From a virus: a stretch of DNA of 54,772 nt. The notes beneath the pieces were generated by a model that worked only from the letters and a program-made list of their open reading frames with translations, did not search any database and had not been told where the DNA came from. Below are positions 5,850 through 54,772 of the stretch, piece after piece. The stretch lies in IMG/VR virus record IMGVR_UViG_3300028430_000584; one strand, 5' to 3'. The number at the start of each line of letters is the position of its first letter. Positions within the stretch are counted from its first letter, which is position 1. The position numbers and the translations under genes are program-made.

Positions 5850-5857
5850 GTGGGGGG
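5842..5857 (-). repeat. Dispersed repeat copy (reverse; CCCCCCACTCAAGGTC on the minus strand)
   Basis: Contains the TGA stop of 5463..5849. Confidence 0.95.
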
Positions 5858-5899
5858 TCTGGTGGTGTGCTATGATGAGGCACTCATCGGAGGCAGCAC

Positions 5900-39517: not shown

Positions 39518-39561
39518 GCGGGAACTCCAAAGGGCCAGAGGGTCCAGAGAAGGATAGCACG

Positions 39562-40965: not shown

Positions 40966-40987
40966 GGTGGATTGGTGGATAGGGAGA

Positions 40988-41003
40988 CCCCCCACTCAAG
41001 GTT
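40988..41003 (+). repeat. Dispersed repeat copy CCCCCCACTCAAGGTT
   Basis: Left arm of the terminator hairpin. Confidence 0.95.
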
Positions 41004-41035
41004 TGTTGGTGGCTTGTCTTGTGACAGGCAACCAG

Positions 41036-41050
41036 CACCTTGAGTGGGGG
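41036..41050 (-). repeat. Dispersed repeat copy (reverse)
   Basis: Right arm of the terminator hairpin, followed by TTTTT. Confidence 0.95.
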
Positions 41051-41124
41051 TTTTTCGTTGAGGGCGTTAGGGTGCGGGAGAGGGTGGGGAGGGACGGGGA
41101 GGTGGAAGGCGGGCCACAACTTCC

Positions 41125-41153
41125 TTATATATATTTTTCAGGTGTCAAAAAAA
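41125..41153. promoter_or_regulatory. AT-rich island in a GC-rich non-coding region (candidate promoter or DNA-unwinding element)
   Basis: ttatatatatttttcaggtgtcaaaaaaa is the most AT-rich stretch seen in the window. Confidence 0.3.
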
Positions 41154-41165
41154 CGAGTTGTAGTT

Positions 41166-41184
41166 GGGGAGGGAGTCCCTCCCC
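41166..41184. repeat. Perfect 19-bp palindrome GGGGAGGGA-G-TCCCTCCCC
   Basis: Read directly. It lies 13 nt downstream of the AT-rich island. Confidence 0.85.
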
Positions 41185-41280
41185 AAAGAGAACGTGTGGC
41201 GATTTGTGACGATTGTGGGGGTGTGAGGGGGGTAACTGAGGCGAACGTGGCGGGGAGGGAGTGCGGAAGGAGCGAAAATC

Positions 41281-41321
41281 TGCCTCCCTAAATGGGCTTC
41301 CCTCCCCAAGCCAGGGAGGCA
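41281..41321. repeat. Inverted repeat tgcctccct / agggaggca with a 23-nt spacer
   Basis: Read directly. Shares the GGGAGG / CCTCCC theme with the 41166 palindrome. Confidence 0.7.
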
Positions 41322-41659
41322 CGAAAAGGGAGGAATGGGGAGGCAGGGGTACTAACGGAAGGAGAACGAGTCGTTAGGGTAGGAATTTTGAGAGGGGTGG
41401 GGTGTTTCCGCTCGCCGCAAGGCCGCGAGCCGGGGGGTGTGCCACCCGCCCGGGCCGCCTGCTTGCCCCCACTGTAACCTAGATGGGCTAGGGGTAAGAC
41501 GCATGCAAGTTATACCCTCGCAAACTTGACCCGATCGGACAGAATGCCTATTGTTCTTGGCTTGCCGATCCCCAGCCTACGTTGGCGCGGGGTCCGCTGG
41601 CCGCGACCGCCCCCGCGTGAACGGGGCGCACCGGGTCCGACGGACCCAAGGAAGTTCCC

Positions 41660-42142
41660 ATGAATGCAATCGTCGCCCCCGCCCCCGCCCCCGTGTCTAG
41701 CGCGGCCGCGCCCCCTAAGGCTAAGAGGGAGAGCGCGAAGGAACTTTGCAATCGCTACCTTGCGCAATACTTTGCGCTGGTGGATGCCACATCGTCTCGC
41801 GCGATCAAGCGCGCGGCCGGCATCCCAGAAACGACAAAACTCGCCGATCTTACCGACGAACAAGCCGCGCTCTACGCTGAAACTCGCGCGGCCGTTCAAT
41901 CGGAAGAATGGTGCGCCGCGTTGAACGGTTGGGCGGCAAAACTCCGCGCGGAGCGAGTAGCGGGTGGCGTGCGTCTGACCGATTGCCATGCACCGCTGGT
42001 GAAGAGACTCATCGACGCGGGCGAGTACACCCCGACCGGACGGCCCGTCACTGTGTTGGAATGGATCACCGCGCGTGTGATCGTAAAAACCACCAGCGCG
42101 GCGCGCGTCCGTGCGTCGATGACCCCCCGCAAGCGTAAGTAA
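41660..42142 (+). CDS. Hypothetical protein (160 aa) with atypical CpG- and GCG-rich codon usage
   Basis: ATG preceded by AAGGAAG. GCG and CGC codons dominate, unlike the GCC, CTC and TCC usage of neighbouring genes. Confidence 0.55.
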   Translation: MNAIVAPAPAPVSSAAAPPKAKRESAKELCNRYLAQYFALVDATSSRAIKRAAGIPETTKLADLTDEQAALYAETRAAVQSEEWCAALNGWAAKLRAERVAGGVRLTDCHAPLVKRLIDAGEYTPTGRPVTVLEWITARVIVKTTSAARVRASMTPRKRK

Positions 42143-42840
42143 ACTAATCGGTTCCCCTACCCGATCCGATCCCTAGCGGGATTGTATCGGATTCCGCCCC
42201 TAGGCGCGAAAGCCCCTAGACGTGGACCCGCACCGGGCATACGGTACGTGCGGGTGACTCGGCTATAGGTGCGCGCTGTGAGCCCTGCGCGTACTGAAGT
42301 GGGTACTGGCCCAGTAGGTTCCCCCGTCGGGAATAATGCCTACACCAGACTAGATGCGAACGCCGCATAGGGCACCCCCCTACTGACCACGTTCGCAGCG
42401 TCCCCCGCCCCGCATTGTCCGACTCCATCGGGCCACGCGGTGTAGGGTGCCGGTATCATGCCTCTCCAAGGGCACGGGCCTAATCCCCCGTAGACACCGG
42501 ATCACACGCCGCATTCGCATCTATCCCCGTTGTCGATAACGGGACGTCGCTCTACTGTGGCCCGCCTAGCAAGCGCACCATCCACCGCACCGACCAATCG
42601 ACCGCCGCCCACCCGTTACATGGGCACCCCCCACAAGTTCCGATACGCTCAGGTTCGGTACATGCACCTACTGGCATCACCCGTAGGTCGGTGTTTGCTC
42701 ACCTGCCAACGCATGTAGCACGTTCAGCCCGCATTCGTTAGTGGGGTAACGCCAACTCAATCCGCACCCTCTCTTCACCGGGAGGGTGCGGCTTCCCTGT
42801 GTCCCCTCCCCCATCCCACTCCCCTCATCAGGAGCCACCC

Positions 42841-43209
42841 ATGTCCACTCTGCTGTCCAACCTGCTTGGCTTCCGTTCCGCGTCTGAACTGCTCGCCCGC
42901 ATCGACGCCCGTGCGGCCGACACCACCATCTCCCCCTACCACGCCATGTGCTATCGCCTTGTCCCCACCCTCGTCGATCAGATGATGGGCTCCGCCATCT
43001 GCGGCGACCTCCGCTCCCGCACCTACACCGGCCTCGCTGCCGACTTCCAATCCTCCGGCGTCATGCCCAGCATCGACTACACTCTTCGCACCATCCGAGC
43101 CATTGCCCTCACCCAGCCATCGCTACCCTCCACTCACTGCCCCCTCATCGAGCGTGAACGCATCGCCCTGCTCGCCCTCGTCCTCGTCGCCCTCAACCTC
43201 ACCGTCTAA
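42841..43209 (+). CDS. Hypothetical early protein (122 aa)
   Basis: ATG preceded by CCCCTCATCAGGAGCCACCC. Within ORF 42799..43209. Confidence 0.5.
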   Translation: MSTLLSNLLGFRSASELLARIDARAADTTISPYHAMCYRLVPTLVDQMMGSAICGDLRSRTYTGLAADFQSSGVMPSIDYTLRTIRAIALTQPSLPSTHCPLIERERIALLALVLVALNLTV

Positions 43210-43329
43210 CCCGCCGCCCCTTGTTGCGGCACCATAGAGCCCCTGTGGCTAGCCCCCACTCACATAACGTGCGTGGCGGGCTTTCCGCTGCACCCGTCGT
43301 GTAGCCCCTCCCCATCAGGAGCCGCCCCC

Positions 43330-43617
43330 ATGTACGATCCCTTCGACCGTCGCACCCTCGCCTCCGCCGCGACCCGCTTCGATGCCCGCCTCCGCCACTG
43401 CATCGCCGAGAACATCCGGCCCCGCTCGCTCGTCACCTTCCCCTGCCCCTACAGCGGCAAACGCATCTCCGTCCAGCGTGGCGGTCCCTCTCCCACCCAC
43501 GCCCCCTCCCCGCTCTGCTACACCCTAACTCTCGGCCCTCGCCCCGCCTCCCCGCACCGCGCCGCTCGCAACGCCGCCCGCCGCGTCCGCCGCAACGCCC
43601 GCACCCCTACCCGCTAA
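43330..43617 (+). CDS. Hypothetical early protein (95 aa)
   Basis: ATG preceded by CCCCATCAGGAGCC. Within ORF 43273..43617. Confidence 0.5.
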   Translation: MYDPFDRRTLASAATRFDARLRHCIAENIRPRSLVTFPCPYSGKRISVQRGGPSPTHAPSPLCYTLTLGPRPASPHRAARNAARRVRRNARTPTR

Positions 43618-43861
43618 CCCCATCAACCCGCACCTGCCGATCGGGGGATCACCTTCACCACACTTGCTGCAAAGGAGTATGCATGTGAAGAACACGCTCA
43701 AGCATGTCATCTAATGTGCACTTGTCTCGCCGGCGTTGAGCGATGGGCTTGACATCCCTGTGTACGCTCACTCCTTGAGAGCACCCCTTTTACCGGGCGT
43801 GCTCTCTTTCCCATCGCACTCCGTAACGTGCGCTGTCCCTCCCTCATCAGGAGCCCTGTCC

Positions 43862-44191
43862 ATGCGTCTCTCACCCACCCGCGTCCCCGTCTCTCCCGTC
43901 TCCCCCACCTCCTCTCTTAGCAGTGCCGACTCGCGTGCCATCAACGGCTACCAGTCCCGGCACGCCCGCCTTCTCGATCTCATCAACTGCGGCGACTTCG
44001 CCACGCTCTACTCCGACCTCATCCGCCTGCGTGAGTACGCCCTCACGCACCCCATCCTCGCCGTCCAGTCCAACCTCATCGACTCGCTCGAACGCTTCGC
44101 TGACACCGCGTTCGACACGCTCGACTCCTCCCCCGCCTCCGACGACGCCCGCCCCTTCCTCCGCTCCCTCCACACCCGCACCTCCATCTAA
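43862..44191 (+). CDS. Hypothetical early protein (109 aa)
   Basis: ATG preceded by CCCTCATCAGGAGCC. Within ORF 43736..44191. Confidence 0.5.
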   Translation: MRLSPTRVPVSPVSPTSSLSSADSRAINGYQSRHARLLDLINCGDFATLYSDLIRLREYALTHPILAVQSNLIDSLERFADTAFDTLDSSPASDDARPFLRSLHTRTSI

Positions 44192-44200
44192 GGAGCCCCC

Positions 44201-44572
44201 ATGTCCACCATCCGGTTCGACTTGCGCCGTCAGTCCGGTTCCACCTGCGACCTTGTCGCCACCATCCACATCCCCGAGAACGAGATGGGCGGCGACCCGT
44301 GGCAGTTCGGTGATGCCCTCGTTGCCCGCCTCTCCTGCATCTTCTGCGAGGACGAGTCCGACCTCCTCTACTGGACCTCCCCCAGCATCAACTCTCCCTC
44401 CCAGTTCGACCACGACAACCACTCGCCAGACCCCATCGACCCCGAGATCCTCGACGCCGCCAACAACCACGGCCAGCGTCCCCTCTCCCCCGACGAGCGG
44501 GCTGCATTCGACGAGCATCTCGACTTCACCAAGCCCGACCGCTTCAACTACGACTGGTCCGGCGCAGACTAA
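44201..44572 (+). CDS. Acidic hypothetical protein (123 aa)
   Basis: ATG preceded by TAAGGAGCCCCC. Asp/Glu-rich. Confidence 0.5.
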   Translation: MSTIRFDLRRQSGSTCDLVATIHIPENEMGGDPWQFGDALVARLSCIFCEDESDLLYWTSPSINSPSQFDHDNHSPDPIDPEILDAANNHGQRPLSPDERAAFDEHLDFTKPDRFNYDWSGAD

Positions 44573-44581
44573 GGACACCCC

Positions 44582-44818
44582 ATGATCGTCACCGTCACAC
44601 CCGAAGACATCACCCGTGGTCGCCGTCTCTCCGCTTGTTCATGCCCGATCGCTCTCGCTATCAGACGTCTCGCTCCGCGCTGTGTCGGTGTCACAAATCA
44701 CACCATCCGCATTGATGATCGGCGGTTCGCCACACCCGAACCTGCCTGCAAGTTCATCAACGACTTCGATGCCGCCCGCCCCGTCATGCCCTTCACCTTC
44801 ACCCTCCCCACGGAATAA
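44582..44818 (+). CDS. Small CPIA-motif protein, paralogue 1 (78 aa)
   Basis: Shares about one third identity with the next ORF by hand alignment: SCPIAxAIRR, FIN, PFxFxLP. Confidence 0.55.
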   Translation: MIVTVTPEDITRGRRLSACSCPIALAIRRLAPRCVGVTNHTIRIDDRRFATPEPACKFINDFDAARPVMPFTFTLPTE

Positions 44819-44821
44819 CCC

Positions 44822-45061
44822 ATGCTCATAAACGTCACCGCCCGCGACATCAAACTCGGCATCCCTTGCTCTAAACAGTCGTGCCCCATCGCCCGTGCCA
44901 TCCGCCGTCGCTTCCCCCGCAGCAGAATTAAAGTGCACGCATGGTGCCTTACGATTAATCGTCGTATCATCAGCACCACTCCTCAAGTAACGAGGTTCAT
45001 CAACGCACTCGACGATGGCAAGCGTGTTCGTCCCTTCAAGTTCGACCTCCCCATCAAGTGA
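44822..45061 (+). CDS. Small CPIA-motif protein, paralogue 2 (79 aa)
   Basis: Tandem duplicate of 44582..44818. Confidence 0.55.
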   Translation: MLINVTARDIKLGIPCSKQSCPIARAIRRRFPRSRIKVHAWCLTINRRIISTTPQVTRFINALDDGKRVRPFKFDLPIK

Positions 45062-45069
45062 GCCCACCC

Positions 45070-45294
45070 ATGTTCCTTGACTACTGGCTCCCGCTCCTCC
45101 TCAACTGGCTCGTCGCCACCACCATCCTCTTCTTCAGCACCGCACGCTTCCGTCTCCGTAACTACGGCACCCGTATGCCCACTTCCCCTCTCGACATCAC
45201 CCTCACCGTCGTCGTGCTCCTGCTCTACCTCACCCTTTGCTTTGTCCCGCTCGCCCAGTACCCGCCCGACTTCTGGGTGTGGCTCCTCCACTGA
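45070..45294 (+). CDS. Small membrane protein (74 aa)
   Basis: Two hydrophobic segments: LPLLLNWLVATTILFF and ITLTVVVLLLYLTLCFV. Confidence 0.45.
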   Translation: MFLDYWLPLLLNWLVATTILFFSTARFRLRNYGTRMPTSPLDITLTVVVLLLYLTLCFVPLAQYPPDFWVWLLH

Positions 45295-45315
45295 CCCCCA
45301 CCCAAGGCACCCTGC

Positions 45316-45579
45316 ATGAAGTCGTCGCCTCTCGAAAGACTCATCGTCCTTATCCTCACGTTCGCGTTCATCCCCGTGCTGATAGGCACACCACCGCTCA
45401 TCGTCGCCGTCATCTGGTACTTCGCTCGTGACTCTGTGGCCGCTGTCTTCTCGTGGCCGTCCGCTTCCACAATCACCTTCTCGCAAGCCTTCTGGCTGTC
45501 CCTCCTCGCATACGTAGTGGGCGTCATCATCTTCCGCCTCGTCCGCGCCATCTTCCCGCCCGCACCCCGCACCACCTGA
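45316..45579 (+). CDS. Small membrane protein (87 aa)
   Basis: Hydrophobic segments LIVLILTFAFIPVLIG and FWLSLLAYVVGVIIF. Preceded by a degenerate repeat copy. Confidence 0.5.
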   Translation: MKSSPLERLIVLILTFAFIPVLIGTPPLIVAVIWYFARDSVAAVFSWPSASTITFSQAFWLSLLAYVVGVIIFRLVRAIFPPAPRTT

Positions 45580-45594
45580 CCCCCACTCAAGGAA
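45580..45594 (+). repeat. Dispersed repeat copy CCCCCACTCAAGGAA
   Basis: 5 nt upstream of ATG 45600. Confidence 0.95.
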
Positions 45595-45599
45595 TCCTT

Positions 45600-45926
45600 A
45601 TGTCAACCACCCCGTTCCCCACTCTCATTGTCATGGGTCGTCTCCCCTCCGACACCCGCGACACCCGCGACACCCGCGACACCGCCTCCGCTGTCCTCTC
45701 CTACCAGCTCGGCTCCTACTACGAGAACAGCACCAAGAACACCATCTACGCCGCAGCCAAGCGCATGGCCCGAGAGATCAACGCTCACGGTGCCCCTCGT
45801 ATCCAAGCCCTCATTACTGCCAAGCGCCTCGTCCCCAATGGCACCAACAACCCCGACGCTCGCCCTGCCGCTGGCTTCAGCATCAGCGTCGTCTGGCCGG
45901 GTGGCCGTGTCAGTGTCATTCGCTAA
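45600..45926 (+). CDS. Hypothetical protein (108 aa) containing a (DTR)x3 repeat
   Basis: The ATG lies 5 nt after repeat copy CCCCCACTCAAGGAA. There is a 9-nt tandem repeat at 45651-45677. Confidence 0.5.
   Translation: MSTTPFPTLIVMGRLPSDTRDTRDTRDTASAVLSYQLGSYYENSTKNTIYAAAKRMAREINAHGAPRIQALITAKRLVPNGTNNPDARPAAGFSISVVWPGGRVSVIR
45651..45677 (+). repeat. Tandem repeat (gacacccgc)x3 plus a partial fourth unit
   Basis: Read directly. Encodes DTRDTRDTRDT in 45600..45926. Confidence 0.9.
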
Positions 45927-46081
45927 CTCTCACCGCCCTCCTGATGGCCGGGTGCGTCTCTCACGGGGCGTGCTCGGTTTCGTGTGCCGTGCCATGCACA
46001 CACCCCCACTCCCACTCAGTACGTGCAGCGTGTGCTGCCGCTGTGTGTGATGGGGTCAACCCCTCCAACAAGGAGCAAAAC

Positions 46082-46336
46082 ATGGCTGTTACCAACGTTC
46101 GCGTCACCGACTCTCGCAACAACACCCGCCGCGTCTTTGAGGTTCCCGAGGGCAGCACCGTCGCTGCCGTCCTCACCGCTGCTGGTGTCCCCTTCAGCGA
46201 GTCGGGGTACGCCATCACCTACCGTGCGGCGGGCACCTCCACCATCACCGCCCTCACGCCGGATGGGATCAACAACACGGTCGTCACCGACATGTCCGAC
46301 GTGTTCGCCACCTTCACCCAGCAGAAGGGCAACTGA
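46082..46336 (+). CDS. Ubiquitin-like / ThiS-MoaD-like beta-grasp protein (84 aa), C-terminus ...TQQKGN
   Basis: ATG preceded by AAGGAG. The pattern VRVTD..RRVFEVPEGSTVAAVLTAAGVP...ITYRAAG...VVTDMSDVFATFTQQKG-N parallels ThiS/MoaD topology, with a near-terminal Gly. In an operon with JAB and E1 genes. Confidence 0.55.
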   Translation: MAVTNVRVTDSRNNTRRVFEVPEGSTVAAVLTAAGVPFSESGYAITYRAAGTSTITALTPDGINNTVVTDMSDVFATFTQQKGN

Positions 46337-46337
46337 T

Positions 46338-46353
46338 CCCCCCACTCAAGGTC
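46338..46353 (+). repeat. Dispersed repeat copy CCCCCCACTCAAGGTC
   Basis: Starts 1 nt after the stop codon of the Ubl gene. Confidence 0.95.
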
Positions 46354-46434
46354 AGTGACTCACCGTGCTGACTCGGGCAGGATGGCCTATCGGCTGTCCT
46401 GCTCTTTCCATTCCCCCACTCAGGAGTTCCCATC

Positions 46435-48498
46435 ATGCCCGTCTCCCCGCACGCCACCCTCACCGACCTCTTCCCCCCTCTCCCCTACGAAAGTCCCGAC
46501 CCAATCAACTTCGACGGCTCGACCTTTTCCTACCCCAACTTCACGGCTCCCGGTCCCGTCTTCACCCGCCATTCCAACCTCGTCGCCTACTCCCTCTCCT
46601 CCGACTCTGACATTGCCGCCGCCCGCCGAGTCTTCTCCCGCTACGCCCACCGCGCCCTAGATCCCGCCCCCTCCTTCTCCTCTCGCCGCGAAGCAATCCG
46701 CCTCCTCCTCACTGCCCGCGAACTCTCCTCCCGCGCCTCCACTTTCCTCGCCAGCCCTACCTCCGCTCGCCTCCACCGCTTCCGCGCTTCGCTCACCCGC
46801 CTCTCCCAGGCCGCCACCGCCTCCACCACCATTAGTTACCTCGATTCCCTCGTCCCACCCGTTCCCTTCAACCCTCTCAAGCCCAACCGCAGCCACCCCC
46901 TGCACTGGCTCTCCGTTTTCGACAACCTCGTCTCCGCCGCCCGTCACTTCTTCCCCCTCTCCTACCTCGTACTCAACCACTCCAGTTCTCAGTGGACCCT
47001 CTACTTCCAGACCCACCCTATCAAGATGCGGTTCCTCGAAGGCTTCCTCCCCAACTTCACCTGCGATTCCGACAATCTCGGCCAGTACCTTCTCCTCCCC
47101 GCTGTCCGTGGCATCCTCCCCCTCCATCTCTCCCTCAACGACTTCACCCGCACCACTCCCTACGCCAACTCTCCCGACGCATCTAACTCCTTCTATATGT
47201 CCAACCGCCAGATTGAATTCTTCCAACCCTACTCCATCCGCACCCATTCCACCCGCCCCCGCCCCGGCTCGACCTTCCCTCACTCCTTCCGCCACCCCCA
47301 CATCTCCAGCTCCCGCGTTTCTTCTCCTTACGCCACCATCTGCCACTCCAACCACTACAAAGAAACCTGCGCCTCTCGCTATTACAACGGCGACTACTAC
47401 TCGCTCATCGCCGACACACTCTCCGTCCTCTCCACCTACAACCCCGGCTCCCCCTACTTCCAACTCTCCGACATCTCCGCTTCCGGTCCCATCACCGTCT
47501 GCCCCCATTGCAACGAGTCCTACGACCCCGCCACCTCCGGCATACGCCCCATCTCCCGCGTCACTCCAACCGCCATCCGCAGAGACCCTGACCCTCACCA
47601 CGCCCCCTGCCTTGTCCCTGTCCCCTGCTTCCACACCCACTTCTTACACAACCCCACCACCCTCACCGACTCCTACGAACTACCCTCTCTCCGCATTACA
47701 ACAGCCGATCCCAACTACGGCTACGACGACACCGACAACTGCCCACTCCACATCACCCCTTCTTTCCTTGACGACTACTGTTTCTCGCATCATACCTACA
47801 CCATCAACTCCCACTCCATCTCAGCCTTCGTCCGTTCCGCTATCCGCGACACCATCACCACTCCCGGCCAACACAAGCCGCTCTCCCACCACTTCCAAGC
47901 TCGCTTCGTCCGCACCCTCACCCCTCACCTCTCCGTTCCCACTCCCTCCTTCGGCGATCCTTCCCCGCCCCTTCCCCTCCCCGCCACCCTCATCTCCAAC
48001 CACCTCCCCCTCTACCACCTCTTCACTTGCGACCCCATTACGGAGCAGATTCCAGCTACCCTCTCCGGCTCAACCCACACTCGCTACGCTTTCTCGATTC
48101 CCCTCCACGAACAGATCTACTTTGCCAACGCTGCTGCCATCGACAAGTTTCTCTGGCGATACGACACATTCCTCACTGCCATCACCGCCGCCCGGGCAGG
48201 TCGCACCTTCATGCGGCTCAACGAGCTGCCCCCGCATCTACGCCCCATCCTGTTGCTCGATCCCTCCCCCATAGACAACCCGTCATCTCCCACCGACCTG
48301 CCCACCACCATCTCTCGCCTCTCCGACTTCTTCCGTGTCATCGTCTGCCCTCCCTTCTCTCAGATCGCTGACACCCTCATCGCTCAAGCCAGCACTCAAG
48401 ACGAAGTGGACCGCATCGTTGCAGACCACTTCGCTGCCATCAACTCGCACCCCATCCCGGAGCCGTCCAATGTCGAATCGCAAGCCGCCGTCGTCTGA
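46435..48498 (+). CDS. Large orphan protein (687 aa) in the E2 position of the Ubl operon
   Basis: ATG preceded by CCCCCACTCAGGAG. No family motif was recognised by eye. Several Cys/His clusters: CPHCNESYD, HHAPCLVPVPCFHTHFLH. Confidence 0.55.
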   Translation: MPVSPHATLTDLFPPLPYESPDPINFDGSTFSYPNFTAPGPVFTRHSNLVAYSLSSDSDIAAARRVFSRYAHRALDPAPSFSSRREAIRLLLTARELSSRASTFLASPTSARLHRFRASLTRLSQAATASTTISYLDSLVPPVPFNPLKPNRSHPLHWLSVFDNLVSAARHFFPLSYLVLNHSSSQWTLYFQTHPIKMRFLEGFLPNFTCDSDNLGQYLLLPAVRGILPLHLSLNDFTRTTPYANSPDASNSFYMSNRQIEFFQPYSIRTHSTRPRPGSTFPHSFRHPHISSSRVSSPYATICHSNHYKETCASRYYNGDYYSLIADTLSVLSTYNPGSPYFQLSDISASGPITVCPHCNESYDPATSGIRPISRVTPTAIRRDPDPHHAPCLVPVPCFHTHFLHNPTTLTDSYELPSLRITTADPNYGYDDTDNCPLHITPSFLDDYCFSHHTYTINSHSISAFVRSAIRDTITTPGQHKPLSHHFQARFVRTLTPHLSVPTPSFGDPSPPLPLPATLISNHLPLYHLFTCDPITEQIPATLSGSTHTRYAFSIPLHEQIYFANAAAIDKFLWRYDTFLTAITAARAGRTFMRLNELPPHLRPILLLDPSPIDNPSSPTDLPTTISRLSDFFRVIVCPPFSQIADTLIAQASTQDEVDRIVADHFAAINSHPIPEPSNVESQAAVV

Positions 48499-50044
48499 CC
48501 ATCCCACCGTCCAGCCCACCGTCACCCTCTCCGCTCTCGCCTACCTCAAACTCCACCTGCTCGCCCTTGCTCCCTCCATCTCCAACGACGAGCCCAACCC
48601 GCTCCGCACCCGCGAGACCGCCGCTCTCCTCATACCCGACCCCGCCGATCCCTTCAAGATCATCGACATTTTCGTCCCCCGCCAACAATCCACCGCAGCC
48701 TCCTTCGAGATCGACCCCACCGACTCGCTCTCCGTCTTCGACACCTCCCCCAACGCACTCCCCTGCTGCACCAACCTCATCTTCCACACCCACCCCGGCG
48801 AGTCCGCCACCCCCTCCGGCGGCGACGACTCCAACTGGCGCACCGTCCAATCGACTGGCCCCTTCGCCATGATGCTCATCTTCGGTCGCCCCACCTCACC
48901 CACCGCCTTCCCCGAGTTCTCTCTCCGCGTCCGCTATCCCCTTGGCCCCGCCGTCATCCCCGGCTTCCCCGCTCTCGCCTCCTCCCCTCCCGTCTACGAC
49001 GGCCCGGCCAAGCTCCTCTACTACTGCCCCTTCCGTGCCTTCCTCGAAGATGGCACACCCTTCCCCCTCTCCCCCGCCGATCGTCTCGCTTTCCTCCAGT
49101 CCGCCCTCGCCGCCAATCCCGGCGCACCCACCATCACTCCCGCCACCATCTACTCCCACAACCTCACCACCAACTGGCACACCCAGTCCGAATCCAAGAA
49201 CGAAGCCCTCAAGCGTTCCCTCTACGCCCAGCTCTCCTCCTTCGTTCACCCTCCCTTCCAATCCGTCACCTCTCAGCACGCCCGCTCCCTCGGCTACATC
49301 CCCCTCTCCGAAGCTGTCAACCAGTCGTGGCTCATTCCCGACTCCGAATCCTTCCCCTACCTCGTTCACCCCGACGCTGCCCCCGTCATCCGCAAAGCGT
49401 GGCACGACTTCATCGGCAACATGCAGTCCTTCATGGGCACCCTCCTCACCCCTGTTGCCACATGGCTCGCCTCCTCCCTCACCCCCTACTTCGCTCAATC
49501 CAAGTCTCAATCTGACTCTGGCCCCCTCGTCCAGTACAAGCGTGCCACCTCCTTCTCTAAGTGGCGTGCCATGCTCACCCCCTCCACCTTCCCCACCCTG
49601 CTCCCCATCTTCAACCCCAGCCTCAACCCCACCAACCCCGAGGACACTTGGTACGAAGCCTTCTACGCCATCGAGTGGCGACCCCACTCCTCTCCCATCT
49701 CCGTCTCCGACATCAAGGATTTCATCGCCGACTCCCGCGTCTTCCAGTACGACGAATCCACCGGCGCATTCCGCATCTCGTGGTCTGCTGCCCGTGACGA
49801 GTGGGAGTGGACCCCCTCCGACGTGTCCCGCATCAACACCCTCCTCCTCACTCTCAACCCCGACCAATCCATCCTCGCCGTCGGCTGCCTCCTTCGCTAC
49901 GAACTCGCTTGGTCCCACATCTGCGAGCACAGTACCTTCTCAGAGTCCGACGCTCTCGACACTGCATTCACAGAAGTCTTCGACGAACTCGTCACTTCCC
50001 TCACCGCCCTCAAGACCACCACCCAGCAGGAGTTGTACTCATGA
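48470..50044 (+). CDS. JAMM/JAB (MPN+) metalloprotease domain protein (524 aa)
   Basis: FHTHPGESATPSGGD is an exact H-x-H-x7-S-x2-D JAMM motif, with an upstream Glu (RETAALL). About 380 aa of C-terminal extension have unknown function. The stop overlaps the E1 start (ATGA). Confidence 0.75.
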   Translation: MSNRKPPSSDHPTVQPTVTLSALAYLKLHLLALAPSISNDEPNPLRTRETAALLIPDPADPFKIIDIFVPRQQSTAASFEIDPTDSLSVFDTSPNALPCCTNLIFHTHPGESATPSGGDDSNWRTVQSTGPFAMMLIFGRPTSPTAFPEFSLRVRYPLGPAVIPGFPALASSPPVYDGPAKLLYYCPFRAFLEDGTPFPLSPADRLAFLQSALAANPGAPTITPATIYSHNLTTNWHTQSESKNEALKRSLYAQLSSFVHPPFQSVTSQHARSLGYIPLSEAVNQSWLIPDSESFPYLVHPDAAPVIRKAWHDFIGNMQSFMGTLLTPVATWLASSLTPYFAQSKSQSDSGPLVQYKRATSFSKWRAMLTPSTFPTLLPIFNPSLNPTNPEDTWYEAFYAIEWRPHSSPISVSDIKDFIADSRVFQYDESTGAFRISWSAARDEWEWTPSDVSRINTLLLTLNPDQSILAVGCLLRYELAWSHICEHSTFSESDALDTAFTEVFDELVTSLTALKTTTQQELYS

Positions 50045-51018
50045 CCATCGACGACACCCGCTTCGCCGCCCTCCTCCCTCCCTCCATCCGTTCCCTCCCC
50101 GTCACCATCATCGGTTGCGGCGGCACCGGCGCAGCCTTCGCCCGCCAACTCGCCTACACCGGCTTCACACACCTCACCCTCATCGACTTCGACACCATCG
50201 AGCCGCACAACCTCGGCCCCCAAGGCTGGTCCGCTGCCCAGCTCGGCCTCCTCAAGGTCGAAGCTCTCGCTTCCGAACTCCGCATCGCCCGTCCCTCCAT
50301 CTCCATCACCTACCACGCCCGTCGCTGGTCCGCCGCCCACGACCTCCGCTCCTGTACCCCCATCGTCTGCTCCTGCGTAGACTCACGCGACACCGACGCC
50401 TTCATCGCCTCCAAGCTCATCCCCCACTTGGAAAATCGTCCAGATCCCTACCTCTACCTCTCCCCCCGTGTCCGCGCCATCGACTACGTCCTCCGCTCCA
50501 TCTTCGACGCCCCCTCCTACGCCTCCTACCTCTCCGCTCACTTCCCCGATTCCGCCGTCCCTCCCGAGCCCGGCTCATGCGGCGTGCCCACCACCCTCTA
50601 CGGCAACACCGCTCTCGCCTGCTTGATGCTCGACAATATCCGTCGCCGCTTCACCGGCTTCCCTGTCATCACTTACGCTCAACGCTCCTTCCACACCCCG
50701 CCTGCCTGCTGGCTCCACGAAGAAGCCGACCAAGACACACTACGCTCTCCAGTCACTGTCACCCCGCCCACCCCACCCGCTCGCCGTGACACCATCCCCC
50801 ACGACCCCAACACCGAGCACTACCTTAGTGAAGTGCGGGCCGTCCGCATCACCCCCTCCATCGAAGCCGCAATGTCCCGTGCCAACCCGGCACACAACCT
50901 CCAGTCTCGTCCCAGCATCCTCTCCCGCACGGAGGAGGACGCCTCCAACCCCCACGGCTTCCTCGAACGCACCCGTGGCGGTCCCCTCCCCCAAATCCCC
51001 ACCGACCTCCCCTCCTAA
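50041..51018 (+). CDS. ThiF/MoeB/E1-like adenylating enzyme (325 aa)
   Basis: VTIIGCGGTGAAFARQLAYTGFTHLTLIDFDTIEPHNLGPQ, then PIVCSCVDSRDTDAFI and GSCGVPTTLYGNTALACLMLDNI, follow the E1/ThiF Rossmann and downstream motifs. Confidence 0.8.
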   Translation: MTIDDTRFAALLPPSIRSLPVTIIGCGGTGAAFARQLAYTGFTHLTLIDFDTIEPHNLGPQGWSAAQLGLLKVEALASELRIARPSISITYHARRWSAAHDLRSCTPIVCSCVDSRDTDAFIASKLIPHLENRPDPYLYLSPRVRAIDYVLRSIFDAPSYASYLSAHFPDSAVPPEPGSCGVPTTLYGNTALACLMLDNIRRRFTGFPVITYAQRSFHTPPACWLHEEADQDTLRSPVTVTPPTPPARRDTIPHDPNTEHYLSEVRAVRITPSIEAAMSRANPAHNLQSRPSILSRTEEDASNPHGFLERTRGGPLPQIPTDLPS

Positions 51019-51028
51019 GGAGCACACC

Positions 51029-51268
51029 ATGCGTGAAATCGTACACATCAACAAGTCCGTCACCGGCATCACCCACGCTTCTCGTGAGATCCTCATCGAA
51101 CCCTGTCCTCCCAACACCGCCTGTTCCTACCGTGTCTGGGTACAGATTGAGATCGGCGGCTTCGACACCCCTCTCATAAAGCAGGAAAGTTACATCTCTC
51201 TCAGCCGTGACGAATACCTCTCCCTCCGCTTTGAACTCGACCGTCGCTTCGAGATCACCCATGCGTGA
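51029..51268 (+). CDS. Hypothetical protein (79 aa)
   Basis: ATG preceded by TAAGGAGCACACC. Directly downstream of the E1 gene. Confidence 0.5.
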   Translation: MREIVHINKSVTGITHASREILIEPCPPNTACSYRVWVQIEIGGFDTPLIKQESYISLSRDEYLSLRFELDRRFEITHA

Positions 51269-51929
51269 GCCCACTCCCCTGCCTATCGCACCCTGCACCT
51301 CCTGTCCCCAGCACGAGACCGCCCTCTTCAATCCCGTCCCTCCCATCCTCCCCTCCTCCCTCACTCACCCCCCTCTCATCATCCTGCTCCCCGCCCCCTC
51401 GACCGATTCTCGCTCCGGCTCCATCCTCGCCTCTCGCACCTACCGTCTCGTCTCCTCCGCCTTCATTCCCCTCCTTCCCCCCATCTCACCCATCTTCATC
51501 CCCATCCTCCGCTGCGTCGTCACCGCCCCCTCCCGCGTGAAGCCCGCCTTCTACACCACCTGCTCTCGAACCCACCTCCTCCCCACCCTCCTCTCCCTTC
51601 TCCCTCACCTTCCCCCCACCCCCACCCCCATCCTCTGCATCGGCGCGCCAGCCGTCCGCTCCCTCCACTCTCTCCTCCACTCTCCTTGCTCCCAAGCCGA
51701 AGCCTTCTCCACTCAAGGCTCCGTCTTCCCGCTCCCCTCCACCCCCTTCTCCATCCAACGTTTCGCTACGCTCGACCCCGCCGAGATCCTCCTCCGCCCC
51801 GAGCGCAAGTCCACCGCCTTCTCCCACCTCTCCCTCCTCTCCACCCACCTCTCCGGCTCACCACCCGCCATCTCCACACCCACCATCGTCCCACCCGGCC
51901 CACCCCCCACTCAAGGTGCTTCACAATGA
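51261..51929 (+). CDS. Possible family-4 uracil-DNA-glycosylase-fold protein with a degenerate active site (222 aa)
   Basis: CTSCP...PPLIILLPAPSTDSRSGSILAS...ILRCVV...ILCIGAPAVRSL parallels the order of UDG4 motifs (CxxC, GEAPG..ED..G.PF.G, N.VKCRP, LG..A). The catalytic residues differ. Confidence 0.3.
   Translation: MREPTPLPIAPCTSCPQHETALFNPVPPILPSSLTHPPLIILLPAPSTDSRSGSILASRTYRLVSSAFIPLLPPISPIFIPILRCVVTAPSRVKPAFYTTCSRTHLLPTLLSLLPHLPPTPTPILCIGAPAVRSLHSLLHSPCSQAEAFSTQGSVFPLPSTPFSIQRFATLDPAEILLRPERKSTAFSHLSLLSTHLSGSPPAISTPTIVPPGPPPTQGASQ
51903..51918 (+). repeat. Dispersed repeat copy CCCCCCACTCAAGGTG
   Basis: 7 nt upstream of ATG 51926. Confidence 0.95.
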
Positions 51930-52159
51930 GCGACAAGCCTGCTCCCGATACGCCCTTCTCCCTCTTTCGTGAACTCGCCGAGATGGATGACTGGATGGTA
52001 CCAGTTACTCGCTACGGGAACGTAGAAGGTCACGAGTGCTTCTTCTGCCGGGCCAAGGTGCATTTTGGCTATATCACAGGTATAACCGTAGAGCACGAGC
52101 CCACTTGCCTCTATGTTCGTGCTCGTGCCCTCCTCGCATCCACCCCTCACTCAAGGTAA
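51926..52159 (+). CDS. Hypothetical protein (77 aa)
   Basis: The ATG lies 7 nt after repeat copy CCCCCCACTCAAGGTG. Confidence 0.5.
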   Translation: MSDKPAPDTPFSLFRELAEMDDWMVPVTRYGNVEGHECFFCRAKVHFGYITGITVEHEPTCLYVRARALLASTPHSR

Positions 52160-52166
52160 CTAACCC

Positions 52167-52406
52167 ATGCACATCGTCTGTACCGACCATCGGCCCACCT
52201 CTCCCCACAAGCGCAAGGTCAGCGAACTCCCGCCCAACACCGTCGTCACCGTCGAAGGCAGCCCCTACGTCGTCATGGTGTCCGGCGTTGCACTCATTGA
52301 CCTCGCTGGAGATCTGCGATGCGTCTCCCCCGACCTCAGCGAATACATCATGCGGCAAACCCCCTACGTCATACACGGTTCCTTCCGCATCAACTCCGTC
52401 GGCTAA
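52167..52406 (+). CDS. Hypothetical protein (79 aa)
   Basis: ORF track. Preceded by a degenerate repeat copy, CCCCTCACTCAAGGTA. Confidence 0.5.
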   Translation: MHIVCTDHRPTSPHKRKVSELPPNTVVTVEGSPYVVMVSGVALIDLAGDLRCVSPDLSEYIMRQTPYVIHGSFRINSVG

Positions 52407-52421
52407 CCCCCACTCAAGGCG
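52407..52421 (+). repeat. Dispersed repeat copy CCCCCACTCAAGGCG
   Basis: 6 nt upstream of ATG 52428. Confidence 0.95.
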
Positions 52422-52427
52422 ATTCAC

Positions 52428-52595
52428 ATGGGTAAGACAAGACGCTCACCCCGCCAGAACAAACTTGTCTCAGTCAGGGTCAAAGCTAACGCTGGCGACT
52501 ATCGCACCACCCGCAAGTTCCACGTCCTCAAAGCCATCCCCTTCCGCCAGTTCAAGGCGGAACTCACCGCCCGCGAATCCCTCACCCCGGAGTAA
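52428..52595 (+). CDS. Hypothetical small basic protein (55 aa; below the ORF-track cutoff)
   Basis: Hand translation MGKTRRSPRQNKLVSVRVKANAGDYRTTRKFHVLKAIPFRQFKAELTARESLTPE. The ATG lies 6 nt after repeat copy CCCCCACTCAAGGCG. Confidence 0.45.
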   Translation: MGKTRRSPRQNKLVSVRVKANAGDYRTTRKFHVLKAIPFRQFKAELTARESLTPE

Positions 52596-52598
52596 CCC

Positions 52599-52922
52599 GT
52601 GCCACGCACCCCCACCCCCACCCGTAAGCCCGTCAAGCCCCGCTACTCGCTCTCCGACCTACGCACCCTGTCCGACCAACTCCGCGATGATGTCTCCCGT
52701 GCCACCTCCTTCCTCAGCAGGTCCCGTGTCAAGGGCTACACCCGCTCCATCCGCACCTTGCCTCCCGATCGCCTCCGCTTCTCGTCCTCCCTCCTGAAGT
52801 CCTATCGTTCGCTCCGCTCCGCCCACTCCCTCTCCTTCCGCCCCACCACCTGCCCCACCACCTACGACCGCCGCATCCTCATCGACATGCGTCGCCTCGC
52901 TGCCGACATCCTCTCACGCTGA
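52599..52922 (+). CDS. Hypothetical protein (107 aa, GTG start)
   Basis: ORF track. Confidence 0.4.
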   Translation: MPRTPTPTRKPVKPRYSLSDLRTLSDQLRDDVSRATSFLSRSRVKGYTRSIRTLPPDRLRFSSSLLKSYRSLRSAHSLSFRPTTCPTTYDRRILIDMRRLAADILSR

Positions 52923-52948
52923 GCACTACATCTGACCCCCACCCACCT

Positions 52949-53311
52949 ATGCTCATCCCACCTACTCCACACAACTACCGGCCCCGTCTCACCCAGAAGC
53001 TCCGGCGCAAGATCGGTTGGCTCGTATCCATCTTGCCCGACCCTGATTCGATGCCCACGTCCGCTCAATCTCGTGACCTGAGCGACGTTCTTCGCTATCT
53101 CACCTTCCTCTCCAGCGAGGACACATGCCCAGCCCAGCCCGACGAAAGCCCCGAGTCCACTACTTCTCCCACCCTCGCTGCCCCGTCCTCACTTCCTCAG
53201 TCATCGCTGGACTCCAGCTCCTCCACTCCTCCTACTCCCTCGAATACCGCTCCCGCTCCATCAAACCCCAACCACCCACCCGAGCCGAACTCCGCCACCT
53301 CCACGCCCTGA
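52949..53311 (+). CDS. Hypothetical protein (120 aa); the C-terminal half is probably read-through
   Basis: ORF track. The first ~60 aa are varied. The rest is S/P/T-rich and overlaps 53125..53409. Confidence 0.35.
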   Translation: MLIPPTPHNYRPRLTQKLRRKIGWLVSILPDPDSMPTSAQSRDLSDVLRYLTFLSSEDTCPAQPDESPESTTSPTLAAPSSLPQSSLDSSSSTPPTPSNTAPAPSNPNHPPEPNSATSTP

Positions 53312-53409
53312 CCAACTGGCTCGCTCGCATGTCCGCCTTCTCCGTCTCGCTCGGTCCCCAAACGCCCACCCGCCGCTTCTCCCTCCCTCCCCCCAAGGCC
53401 CACCCATGA
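53125..53409 (+). CDS. Hypothetical protein (94 aa)
   Basis: ORF track. The alternative frame overlaps 52949..53311. Confidence 0.35.
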   Translation: MPSPARRKPRVHYFSHPRCPVLTSSVIAGLQLLHSSYSLEYRSRSIKPQPPTRAELRHLHALTNWLARMSAFSVSLGPQTPTRRFSLPPPKAHP

Positions 53410-53858
53410 AACTCTCCGAAGTCACCCTCGCCTGCGGCACCAAACTCTCCTCCCTCTCCCCCAGCGACCCCCTCTTCTACATCGACAAAGACGAGGTCCG
53501 CAAGATCACGTTCTGGGACATCATCACCCAACCCAGCGGTGACTGGATGATCTCCCACGCCACCACCACCCGCTACGCCATGTCCCGCCTCTACTCCACC
53601 GCAGCCTCGGCATGGGCCGTGCTCGCCGCTGAAAAGCAACGCGAACTCCGTGCCCTCTGCATCAAAGCCCAACCAGTCGGCACCCCCCAGAAATACTACA
53701 TCGGATTAGCACACGCAGAATGCGCAAACTGGATCTGTGACATCTTCACCGCTGGCGACAAGTGCGTCGCTTCTGCGCGCGCAAGCAACAAGGACGCCGC
53801 GACCTTCCGCGCCGCCTGTATCGCCTCTGCCCTCAACACCACCAACGCCGACCTCTAG
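53406..53858 (+). CDS. Hypothetical protein (150 aa)
   Basis: ORF track. ATGA overlap with the previous ORF. Confidence 0.5.
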   Translation: MKLSEVTLACGTKLSSLSPSDPLFYIDKDEVRKITFWDIITQPSGDWMISHATTTRYAMSRLYSTAASAWAVLAAEKQRELRALCIKAQPVGTPQKYYIGLAHAECANWICDIFTAGDKCVASARASNKDAATFRAACIASALNTTNADL

Positions 53859-53879
53859 CCCCCCGCAAGGAGCCCCGCA

Positions 53880-54311
53880 ATGACCGACCCCACCCCCGAG
53901 TACGAACAGATGGACGCGATCATGGTTGATTTCCGGCGGCTGGATTGGACGAACGGCGCAGAAAGCGGCGGCCTACTCGTCGATACTGGCGTCATCTCAG
54001 CCCTCGCCGCCCCGCTCGAAGCCGCGAACGCGAGGATCAGGAAGTTGGAGGCGGAGATTGCACCGCTTCGGCAGTTTGTCGGCCACAGCCTTGTGCTGTC
54101 TGCCTATCGCACCGCCGACGAGATGCGAACCCAGATCACCGAACTCCGCGAGGCCGTGAGGGTGTTGGCGAAGGAATGCCACACTTGGCGAAAGCGGCAC
54201 GATGTCGAGGACGTGAACCGCATGGGCTATTCGGATATTGACGCCGTGAACGCCAACCCCACCGCCCGCGCCGCGATCGAAGCGGCAAGGGCACAGGAGA
54301 ACAGCAAGTGA
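53880..54311 (+). CDS. Hypothetical coiled-coil protein (143 aa)
   Basis: ATG preceded by CAAGGAGCCCCGCA. Balanced base composition. Confidence 0.55.
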   Translation: MTDPTPEYEQMDAIMVDFRRLDWTNGAESGGLLVDTGVISALAAPLEAANARIRKLEAEIAPLRQFVGHSLVLSAYRTADEMRTQITELREAVRVLAKECHTWRKRHDVEDVNRMGYSDIDAVNANPTARAAIEAARAQENSK

Positions 54312-54655
54312 ACAAACTACCCGATCTGATCGAGGAACTGCGGATGCTGCTCGGGCGAAACGTTACGAGCGCGGGGTTCATCCGCGACCGTGCCATCGCG
54401 GAACTCACCCGCCTACGCCAGATCGAGGCCGACGCGAAGGCGGCGGGCCAGATCACGAGGGACGGGAAGTTCGCACGGCTCGGCATGAAGGTCTGGCACC
54501 CGAAGCACGCCAAGCCGAGTGAGTGTTTCATCGAACACCCCGAAGATGGGTTCTCAATCGAGATTGAAGAGGGGGAGAAGTTCTTCTACTGCCCCGTGTC
54601 CGACTGCTACTCCACCCGCGAAGCCGCCGAGGCGGCAAGAGAGGAGAAGGCATGA
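54308..54655 (+). CDS. Hypothetical protein (115 aa)
   Basis: GTGA/ATGA-type overlaps with both neighbours. ORF track. Confidence 0.55.
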   Translation: MNKLPDLIEELRMLLGRNVTSAGFIRDRAIAELTRLRQIEADAKAAGQITRDGKFARLGMKVWHPKHAKPSECFIEHPEDGFSIEIEEGEKFFYCPVSDCYSTREAAEAAREEKA

Positions 54656-54772
54656 CCGACCGCATGACGTGCCCGCAGTGCCGGTCGGTCAAGATCATCG
54701 TTGCCTATTGGAGAGATCCGCCTTCTTCGCTTTGCGCCTGCCGTGACTGTTGTTTAGTATGGAATGAGAGTA
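54632..54772. repeat. Terminal direct repeat, right copy; identical to 1-141
   Basis: Same 141-nt string as the window start. Confidence 0.95.
54652..54772 (+). CDS. 5' part of the zinc-ribbon gene, duplicate of 21..141 (truncated by the window end)
   Basis: Lies inside the 141-nt terminal repeat. Confidence 0.6.
   Translation, partial: MTDRMTCPQCRSVKIIVAYWRDPPSSLCACRDCCLVWNES

Follow-up and report, generated by a model that had tools for sequence, protein, structure and literature searches.

What would a bacteriophage do with a set of genes that resembles a ubiquitin-conjugation operon? This question is raised by the virus record IMGVR_UViG_3300028430_000584, of which we analyzed the entire stretch of 54,772 nucleotides (hereafter, the window). 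A preliminary description had singled out four co-oriented genes between positions 46,082 and 51,018 as a module of a ubiquitin-like protein (Ubl), a JAB/JAMM peptidase and an E1-like enzyme, with a fourth protein of 687 residues in the slot that the E2 enzyme occupies in bacterial Bil operons. When we re-read the translations, the four open reading frames (ORFs), their motifs and their overlaps proved to be as claimed (Table 1), and the fold, Pfam matches and synteny set out below bear out the composition of the module and its Bil order. The module is not restricted to the window phage but recurs in other phages, in viral contigs and in Planctomycetota. We rate a little above even the reading that the four genes form a self-contained cascade for conjugating the Ubl to proteins, in which the JAB peptidase exposes Gly83 of the Ubl, the E1 adenylates it, Cys303 of the 687-residue protein receives it and protein extensions choose the target.

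Table 1. Coordinates of the four cassette genes and of the sites discussed in the text.
Feature	Coordinates	Strand	Basis or remark
Ubl gene, 84 aa	46082..46336	+	internal ATG of ORF 45944-46336; C-terminus ...FATFTQQKGN
GC-rich 13-bp hairpin + short U tract, terminator-/attenuator-like	46375..46404	+	terminator scan; between Ubl gene and enzyme genes
E2-slot gene, 687 aa	46435..48498	+	ORF translation
Candidate active site H287-P288-H289 ... C303	47293..47343	+	invariant in 2 phage + 43 cellular sequences
Putative single zinc finger C356-x2-C359 ... H389-x2-C392	47500..47610	+	remnant of cellular CxxC array
JAB gene, 524 aa	48470..50044	+	translation carries HTHPGESATPSGGD
JAMM zinc motif H106-T-H108-PGESATP-S116-GG-D119	48785..48826	+	read from translation
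E1 gene, 325 aa	50041..51018	+	translation carries IIGCGGTGAAFARQLAYTGFTHLTLIDFD, SCVDSRDTD, GSCGV
E1 Cys180, candidate thioester (crossover-region) cysteine	50578..50580	+	conserved in 116/118 phage, cellular, viral E1s

By its sequence, the 325-residue protein is a minimal E1 of the ThiF/UBA5 type that retains every residue for adenylation. It passes the Pfam threshold for ThiF (PF00899, E = 1.1e-20, 74.3 bits against a cut-off of 28.1), in agreement with the nucleotide-binding motif and the downstream segments noticed in the preliminary description. The ThiF fold covers approximately residues 5–214 and is followed by a variable tail, which matches no family, has no paralogue in the window and is absent from the 245-residue homologue in phage lineage L009. 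Members of the family have 215–260 residues with a single ThiF domain starting at residue 5–20. The hhalign comparison of the phage E1 with the cellular E1 family gave a probability of 99.6 % (E = 2.7e-24), and the best solved relatives of the family profile are UBA5 (3e-22), MoeB (1.8e-19), MccB (2e-19), Uba1, ThiF, BubCD (5e-15) and Cap2 (7e-11). At least 110 of 118 family members share R7, G25, G27, G30, D49, D51, N57, Q61, K72, D114 and R143, among them the arginine finger, the GxGxxG motif and the ATP/Mg-site residues Asp, Gln, Lys and Asp. Cys180 lies between the strand with R143 and the last helix, in what we take to be the segment that holds C187 of MoeB.

The 524-residue protein is predicted to be an intact JAMM/MPN+ peptidase. 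Its exact JAMM motif was described correctly, and the protein passes the Pfam threshold for Prok-JAB (PF14464, E = 1.2e-7, 32 bits against a cut-off of 25) and gives weak matches to the PADLOC JAB models and to NCBIfam Cap3. Residues E49, H106, H108, S116 and D119 are invariant in three phage lineages, and hhalign joins the phage JAB to the cellular JAB family with a probability of 98 % (E = 1.6e-13). The MPN domain (residues ~15–180) precedes a phage-specific C-terminal part of ~345–375 residues; the C-terminal 375 residues of the window protein match nothing.

According to its modeled structure, the 84-residue protein is a real beta-grasp Ubl. AlphaFold2, supplied with an alignment of 19 sequences (18 homologues), returned a model with pLDDT 86.7 and pTM 0.75 in which the elements follow each other as bb-a-bb-(a)-b, the beta-grasp order, and residues 82–84 form a floppy tail. 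A Foldseek search of the PDB with this model placed the Ubl domains of MIDN and TBCE, SUMO1/2/3, ISG15 and ubiquitin variants on top (E = 4e-4 to 4e-3); the top 50 matches were almost all Ubl or ubiquitin-superfold domains (probability 0.96–1.0), and Hub1 was among the matches. Viral ubiquitins, Ubl proteins and some uncharacterised phage proteins were found in BFVD, a viral structure library. The confident model and these matches uphold the beta-grasp assignment of the preliminary description. Matches by sequence only are weak: Pfam Ufm1 (E = 0.046), Fer2_4 and SLBB score E = 0.03–0.08, and the Ubl profile matches MoaD, ThiS and SAMP2 below threshold (E = 0.16–0.76).

Gly83 is the sole invariant column among 34 phage and cellular Ubl homologues. 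All three phage Ubls end in ...QQKGN and cellular Ubls typically in ...IEGA; elsewhere in the family, the Gly is mostly followed by Ala and a variable tail. What follows the invariant Gly is a stretch of 1–16 variable residues (in the aligned Ubls), another Ubl domain or the E2-slot protein, and a peptidase must therefore act after the Gly. Tandem poly-Ubl genes occur in IMG/VR contigs (L105/L107 3378-4115, L106 2417-3082 and L110 2303-2968), where two or three domains are joined head to tail as ...(Q/E)GA|V... in the manner of polyubiquitin, and natural fusions of Ubl and E2-slot protein occur in Planctomycetota (P0042, 421 aa; P0164 = L030 3998-5038, 346 aa). The invariant Gly and variable extensions would fit the earlier proposal that the C-terminal residue after Gly is trimmed, as does the precedent of Type II Bil systems: BilA carries a conserved Gly followed by up to nine residues, BilC cuts after this Gly, and BilA of E. 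aridi ends in Gly97-Ala98 (PMC10557695). BubCD likewise processes BubAB after Gly (PMC11601596).

The ...QQKGN ending of the three phage Ubls would also suit an MccB-like reaction, in which the E1 would convert the terminal Asn84 itself to a peptidyl- or protein-nucleotide adduct, the JAB protein serving some other purpose. With E = 2e-19, MccB does belong to the best solved relatives of the E1 family, but the match is limited to the shared nucleotide-binding half, and the ThiF fold begins at about residue 5, so that the N-terminal peptide-clamp domain is missing. The Asn after Gly is, moreover, not conserved outside the window phage clade, Ala with a variable tail being the usual state. We find this reaction scarcely credible.

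Where else does the cassette occur? Relatives of the JAB and E1 proteins led us to further phage lineages (L007, L012 and L009) with the same genes in the same order and 39–79 % protein identity. The nearest cellular E1s (~30 % identity) belong to operons for a 75-residue ThiS-like protein, an unknown protein of ~350 residues, a JAB protein of ~220 residues and a ThiF protein of ~225 residues. A genome scan produced at least 429 cellular E1 loci, 80 of which were kept for analysis (79 from Planctomycetota and one labelled Anaerolineales). Among these 80, a Ubl gene is present in 58, an E2-slot gene in 66 and a JAB gene in 72, and the order Ubl-X-JAB-E1 is kept in 58–66; many of the loci without upstream genes end at contig edges. 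All four genes are linked between phage and cell by profile-profile comparison with hhalign. The four-gene synteny in related genomes, on which the modular interpretation had been made to depend, is conserved in three phage lineages, in the Planctomycetota loci and in viral contigs, and the nearest cellular relatives of the cassette are those of Planctomycetota. Apart from the cassette, none of the window proteins has a match in the cellular loci. A metagenome-assembled genome (MAG) labelled Alphaproteobacteria contains a partial E1 (P0007) that is 100 % identical to that of the phage; this is either a binning artefact or a hint at the host, and it conflicts with the affinity to Planctomycetota.

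The cellular neighbours examined include genes for an integrase, an excisionase-like helix-turn-helix protein, a DUF2958 protein, transposases, type I restriction-modification enzymes and a NACHT ATPase, and several genomes hold more than one copy of the operon (three in JAXMBC010000001; four contigs in one MAG, JAEUIF01). Integrases, transposases and multiple copies suggest that the cellular operon resides on an integrative mobile element. In loci L096/L097 (L096 5082-9502) and L098 (6631-9497), an unknown protein of ~545 residues and a DUF2958 protein are encoded upstream.

Searches of 50,697 GenBank phages with the DNA and the proteins of the module returned nothing, and the same was true of IMG/VR scans with single proteins (the E1 and the 687-residue protein) and with the JAB alignment. 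Only the cellular-type E1 alignment reached IMG/VR contigs, namely 30 viral contigs of 15–289 kb and 27–67 % GC, 17 of which carry all four genes in order. Their neighbouring genes encode family-A DNA polymerase, DnaB, RecA, UDG, ThyX and RNA ligase. In some viral contigs, including those with poly-Ubl genes, the E2-slot protein (710–798 aa) and the JAB protein (466–654 aa) are enlarged as in the window, by expansions that are not homologous to those of the window proteins.

The E1 of one viral contig (L108) matches 85 records of cultured or assembled phages at 28–31 % identity. These are crAss-like Bacteroides phages and phages of Flavobacterium psychrophilum, Xanthomonas, Acinetobacter, Moraxella and Erwinia, in which the gene is annotated 'thiamine biosynthesis protein'. 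In crAss001 (L130, MH675552.1 81394-85804), gp76 is an E1 (E = 5e-30 against the hidden Markov model (HMM) of the family) and is preceded by genes for a 'metalloprotease' (gp77) and two hypothetical proteins, in a stretch bounded by the primase and UDG genes. By eye, gp79 has a Ubl-like segment ending in ...KIKSGA and gp78 the sequence HSHVSS...PCTG; neither is statistically supported. The resemblance of gp77, gp78 and gp79 to JAB, E2-slot protein and Ubl is not significant, and we rejected it as evidence and kept it as a lead.

These neighbourhoods bear on a different use of a Ubl, the supply of sulfur. Here the E1 would adenylate the Ubl, a sulfur donor would turn it into a C-terminal thiocarboxylate, and the sulfur would end up in a small molecule or a modified nucleic acid, as in pathways of the CysO/Mec+/MoeZ or QbsE/QbsD type, and the JAB protein would do nothing more than expose the Gly. 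Triads of Ubl, JAB and E1 are known in such pathways (PMC1779556), several cellular Ubls are annotated 'sulfur carrier protein ThiS' or 'molybdopterin converting factor', ThiF is the best NCBIfam match of the E1, and the sub-threshold matches of the Ubl profile to MoaD, ThiS and SAMP2 point the same way. However, none of the NCBIfam equivalogs (ThiF, MoeB, PRTRC, 6A-MBL, UbaA) comes near its cut-off for the E1: the scores are 79.5 against 159 for ThiF, 40.4 against 266 for MoeB and 29.5 against 144.75 for PRTRC_ThiF (TIGR03736). The E1 lacks a rhodanese domain, and the phage, cellular and viral neighbourhoods examined contain no rhodanese, sulfurtransferase, desulfurase or acceptor synthase. 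Unlike CysO/Mec+ and QbsE/QbsD, where a Gly is likewise exposed by trimming of the C-terminus, the cassette includes a conserved Cys/His protein, and it is found in mobile elements and phage replication modules rather than in biosynthetic clusters. The Ubl model is nearer to SUMO, ISG15 and ubiquitin than to ThiS or MoaD, and tandem poly-Ubl genes are a hallmark of conjugation systems. Because of the missing partner enzyme, the mobile and phage setting, the poly-Ubl genes and the SUMO/ubiquitin-like model, we disfavor the sulfur pathway that had first been kept as an alternative, and regard it as quite improbable.

If the cassette conjugates its Ubl to proteins, the 687-residue protein would be the natural candidate for the transfer enzyme. 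The preliminary description had called it an orphan without a recognisable motif, a view that we can correct since BLASTP, hhalign and alignment uncovered both relatives and conserved motifs. It belongs to no Pfam, PHROG, PADLOC or NCBIfam family, and an exhaustive HMMER search with it returned one other cluster only (at 50 % identity clustering), also from a phage. BLASTP relates it to a 358-residue protein of locus L013 (E = 0.007), and the phage profile aligns with the cellular E2-slot family over residues 258–367 (hhalign probability 94 %, E = 1.2e-7); a deep alignment of the E2-slot family comprises 174 clusters. The N-terminal part of the window protein is helical and leads to a conserved core with Cys and His residues. 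This is followed by one zinc finger and by a C-terminal extension of ~290 residues that is specific to the phage; the C-terminal 288 residues are without a match. In the family, the motifs follow each other as a strand-rich LG-F-I-L, then V-T-H-P-H-V-x4-L-C-x-G-D ... G-R-L-x-D-F-F ... T-Y-N-P-x-S-P-Y-V ... W-x-G, of which the window protein keeps H287-P-H289, C303, D320, Y335 and S339. The His, the Pro, the Cys and the Gly that follows it are invariant in 79/79 cellular and viral cores, with HPN and then I or V in some viral members. After the core, cellular members have about nine CxxC motifs with a weak resemblance to B-box, RING and Siva. For the putative finger of the window protein, C356, C359, H389 and C392 are conserved with P0005, and an alignment of 2 phage with 43 cellular sequences keeps C356, C359 and C392 without exception; the region gives a weak treble-clef match (zf-Tbcl_FmdE, E = 0.005–0.015).

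To compare this family with E2 enzymes, a profile of the 79 core sequences was aligned by hhalign with four canonical E2s, whose sequences were checked against the PDB. The alignment scored 31.0 (P = 2.4e-4, probability 43.5 %, 78 columns) and is collinear: HPH is aligned with the HPN of E2s, the Cys with their catalytic Cys and TYNPxSPY with PNPxDPL. The same score was reached by none of 120 column shuffles and by 2 of 120 block shuffles. From these similarities, the 687-residue protein is probably an E2-like transfer enzyme. Several results weigh against this assignment or against the cascade built on it. The cellular-only profile reaches P = 0.03 against the E2s, a score equaled by 4–10 % of shuffles; this is not significant, and we therefore do not call the protein an E2 outright. 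HMMER searches of the PDB and Pfam with the E2-slot family and with the core retrieved no E2 and at most zinc-finger and coiled-coil noise, and an HMM of canonical E2s run against all ORFs of the loci did not single out the family (best member 6th, 3.3 bits). An AlphaFold2 model of residues 145–400, computed with 44 homologues, has a pLDDT of 42.5 and is unusable, and its Foldseek output is noise. Outside the E2-slot protein, the profile link between phage and cellular Ubls has E = 1.5e-4 and a probability of only 51 %, the alignment is ambiguous as to whether C180 of the E1 is equivalent to the cysteine of MoeB (C187), ThiF or UBA5, and no E3 gene was identified in the cassette. Archaeal SAMP and eukaryotic Urm1 are Ubls that are conjugated without an E2. 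Bub conjugation proceeds without cysteine intermediates (PMC11601596). For the last two reasons, a thioester relay may be wrong in detail.

The unusable model and the fruitless HMMER searches for an E2 would also suit conjugation of the SAMP/UbaA or Urm1/Uba4 kind, independent of an E2, in which the E1 suffices to activate the Ubl and is followed by direct conjugation. The 687-residue protein would then be the main substrate, a scaffold or adaptor, or a zinc-finger factor that confers specificity in the manner of an E3. Adaptors and E3s typically have Cys-rich regions such as the large one of the cellular homologues, with its weak likeness to B-box, RING and Siva; the E1 belongs to the minimal homodimeric enzymes, like UBA5, MoeB and UbaA; and the fusions of Ubl and E2-slot protein would also fit a substrate or partner. 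On the other hand, an invariant Cys with His-Pro 4–16 residues upstream in all 79 sequences, from sources of 27–67 % GC, speaks for catalysis and not for scaffolding. The collinear match covers active-site and helix-2 motifs of E2s at P = 2.4e-4, the protein occupies the slot of BilB in Bil operons, and Type I Bub operons as a rule have Ubl and E2 fused. We consider an E2-independent mechanism unlikely.

For the E2-dependent cascade that we prefer, the following sequence of events can be proposed. The genes would be expressed from the arm that runs from a divergent region at ~42.5 kb to the replication genes. The Ubl would be made with an extra Asn84, which the JAMM peptidase would remove, exposing Gly83; later, the same peptidase could reverse the conjugation. 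The minimal, probably homodimeric, ThiF/UBA5-type E1 would bind the Ubl, adenylate Gly83 with ATP and probably take the Ubl onto its Cys180. From there, the Ubl would pass to Cys303 of the 687-residue protein, whose H-P-H...C core would act as the E2 active site, while the target would be chosen by the zinc finger together with those C-terminal extensions of the 687-residue and JAB proteins that are specific to the phage. We infer every chemical step, the E2 nature of the 687-residue protein, the timing of expression and the target. This target could be a host protein, a protein of a competing phage or one of the phage's own proteins, and the corresponding roles would be host takeover or counter-defence, Bil-like exclusion of competitors, and modification of the phage's own proteins or assembly.

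How does the cassette relate to known systems? It shares with Bil the gene order Ubl-E2-JAB-E1 (PMC10557695), a beta-grasp Ubl with a conserved Gly and a short non-conserved tail (Gly-Ala in E. aridi BilA, as in most cellular members here), a JAMM peptidase that presumably trims the Ubl beforehand, variants with several Ubls in tandem and the lack of a separate E3 gene. In contrast to Bil, the E1 of the cassette has one adenylation domain, with neither an inactive adenylation domain nor an inserted CYS domain. Bil E2s have a conserved Cys with an adjacent downstream His, CEHH in Type II (PMC10557695), whereas the E2-slot protein shows H-P-(H/N)...C-x-G with an upstream His and zinc fingers and no conserved E/H after the Cys. 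No Bil-specific model matches, and the carriers are phages, viral contigs and integrative elements, not defence islands alone. The cassette resembles Bub (6E/DUF6527) in its minimal homodimer-type E1 related to UBA5 and ThiF (BubCD, 5e-15) and in the occasional fusions of Ubl and E2-slot protein that, like BubAB, would need cleavage by a JAB. It differs from Bub, with its JAB-E1 or E2-E1 fusions, in that JAB and E1 are separate genes and in that no DUF6527/BubE protease was found in the window or among the neighbours. Bub forms oxyesters and its E1 lacks a crossover-loop Cys (PMC11601596), unlike the cassette with its invariant E2-slot Cys and its C180 in 116 of 118 E1s.

UBA5, the best solved relative of the E1 (3e-22), and the weak Pfam Ufm1 match of the Ubl (E = 0.046) recall the UBA5-UFM1-UFC1 pathway. 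UFM1, too, is made with a short C-terminal extension after a conserved Gly. The E2-slot protein has no detectable relation to UFC1, however, and the cassette has a JAMM peptidase instead of a Cys protease and is prokaryotic or viral. With CBASS Type II (Cap2/Cap3), the cassette has in common the logic of E1-like adenylation and a JAB isopeptidase, along with weak or partial matches to PADLOC E1-E2 and JAB models and NCBIfam Cap3; in contrast to that system, the E1 carries no fused E2, the cassette has a dedicated Ubl of its own, and no CD-NTase or effector occurs in any context examined. A phage Ubl beside a JAB peptidase is also known from the tail-assembly proteins TAPI (Ubl) and TAPK (JAB-NlpC) of Lambda and T1 (PMC1779556), and fusions with 'Tip attachment protein J' are among the BFVD matches of our Ubl model. 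Those genes belong to the tail cluster and lack E1 and E2, whereas the cassette has an E1 and lies upstream of replication genes. With the PRTRC system, of which the PRTRC_ThiF score is far under the cut-off, only the mobile-element setting is shared. E1 architecture, E2 motifs, the missing DUF6527 and the equivalog scores exclude membership in Bil, Bub, CBASS Type II and PRTRC, and we therefore regard the cassette as a new form of ubiquitination-like operon in bacteria, with viruses and mobile elements as its main carriers. In agreement with the preliminary description, we found no paper on a phage module of this composition in a searchable library that is known to be incomplete.

Bacterial Ubl conjugation has so far been described as a host defence against phages (CBASS Type II, Bil and probably Bub), and eukaryotic viruses use ubiquitin, E3 ligases and deubiquitinases. 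A complete cassette of Ubl, E2-like protein, JAMM peptidase and E1 that is conserved both next to phage replication genes and on integrative elements would mean that viruses and mobile elements use the chemistry of host defence themselves. It is conceivable, if somewhat short of an even chance in our estimate, that phages of many lineages encode a complete Ubl cascade and use it, alongside the genes for replication, for tagging proteins of the host or of viruses. Such lineages would then comprise the window clade, at least 17 IMG/VR contigs (27–67 % GC) and maybe crAss-like and Flavobacterium phages, and the cassette would be the viral counterpart, or the source, of the host defences Bil, Bub and CBASS, with an E2-like enzyme of a new type fused to zinc-finger specificity modules. 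The enzyme set would be compact: besides the 84-residue Ubl, it would comprise a minimal E1, in which a cysteine is conserved, and a new Cys/His family of transfer proteins whose zinc modules resemble B-box and RING. The architecture of the cassette, between those of Bil and Bub, would bear on the evolution of E1-E2 cascades. In records of phages and Planctomycetota, the labels 'thiamine biosynthesis protein ThiF' and 'sulfur carrier protein ThiS' are probably wrong.

The window represents an essentially complete phage genome that encodes a family-A DNA polymerase and a PD-(D/E)XK exonuclease in addition to a large terminase, and contigs with identical genes measure 54.7–55.4 kb. The phage is an uncultivated freshwater virus of ~55 kb, the genes of which are listed in 95 blocks of a public assembly collection. 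A tblastn search of 50,697 phage records with its terminase gave no match, and its DNA polymerase is only ~26 % identical to the best matches. Most window ORFs belong to no family, and the lineage is very isolated. Early expression is suggested by the place of the cassette on the way from the divergent region (~42.5 kb) to the replication genes, and a lytic life style by the gene order; no integrase was seen in the genome parts that carry Pfam marks. Eight neighbouring early ORFs have neither a family nor a paralogue within the window. Among the minus-strand genes is one for a sugar glycosyltransferase (PF04488, L099 1546-2277).

Independent gene calls on metagenome contigs gave the same starts and boundaries for the four cassette genes. 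The 687-residue ORF overlaps the JAB start by 29 nt, and the JAB stop overlaps the E1 start as ATGA. AGGAG ribosome-binding sites precede the Ubl, 687-residue and E1 genes, the Ubl site reading AAGGAG. A 13–14 bp GC-rich hairpin followed by UUU, equivalent to the one between the Ubl and enzyme genes of the window, is found in L007 (~808-839) and L012 (~4285-4318) with different stem sequences. For the spacer that separates the Ubl gene from the following gene, the folding z-scores are -2.9, -4.4 and -3.1 in the three phage lineages; terminator-like elements are no more numerous in the region than in shuffles. The hairpin may act as a partial terminator, or it may stabilise the 3' end and thereby favour Ubl mRNA over that of the enzymes. 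Downstream of the E1, the window clade has a 79-residue gene (51029-51268) and then a gene for a 222-residue protein (51261-51929), which has no Pfam match; in L012 and L009, a 222–223-residue protein directly follows the E1. This protein could be a fifth component or a target.

A further peculiarity of this genome is its base composition. The G-poor composition may have weakened homology searches and structure prediction for the window clade. The coding strand is extremely C-rich and G-poor at 42800-54772 and 1-6000 (plus-strand genes) and at 36000-42000 (minus-strand genes), and GC skew in these C-rich regions falls to -0.5. At third codon positions, the 687-residue gene has 72 % C and 7 % G, against 30 % C and 45 % G in the late gene for a 1150-residue protein. 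Protein composition moves with this C bias: Gly amounts to 3.0 vs 9.7 %, Pro to 10.7 vs 5.4 %, Ser to 11.3 vs 6.5 %, His to 4.0 vs 1.4 % and Lys to 1.2 vs 3.8 %.

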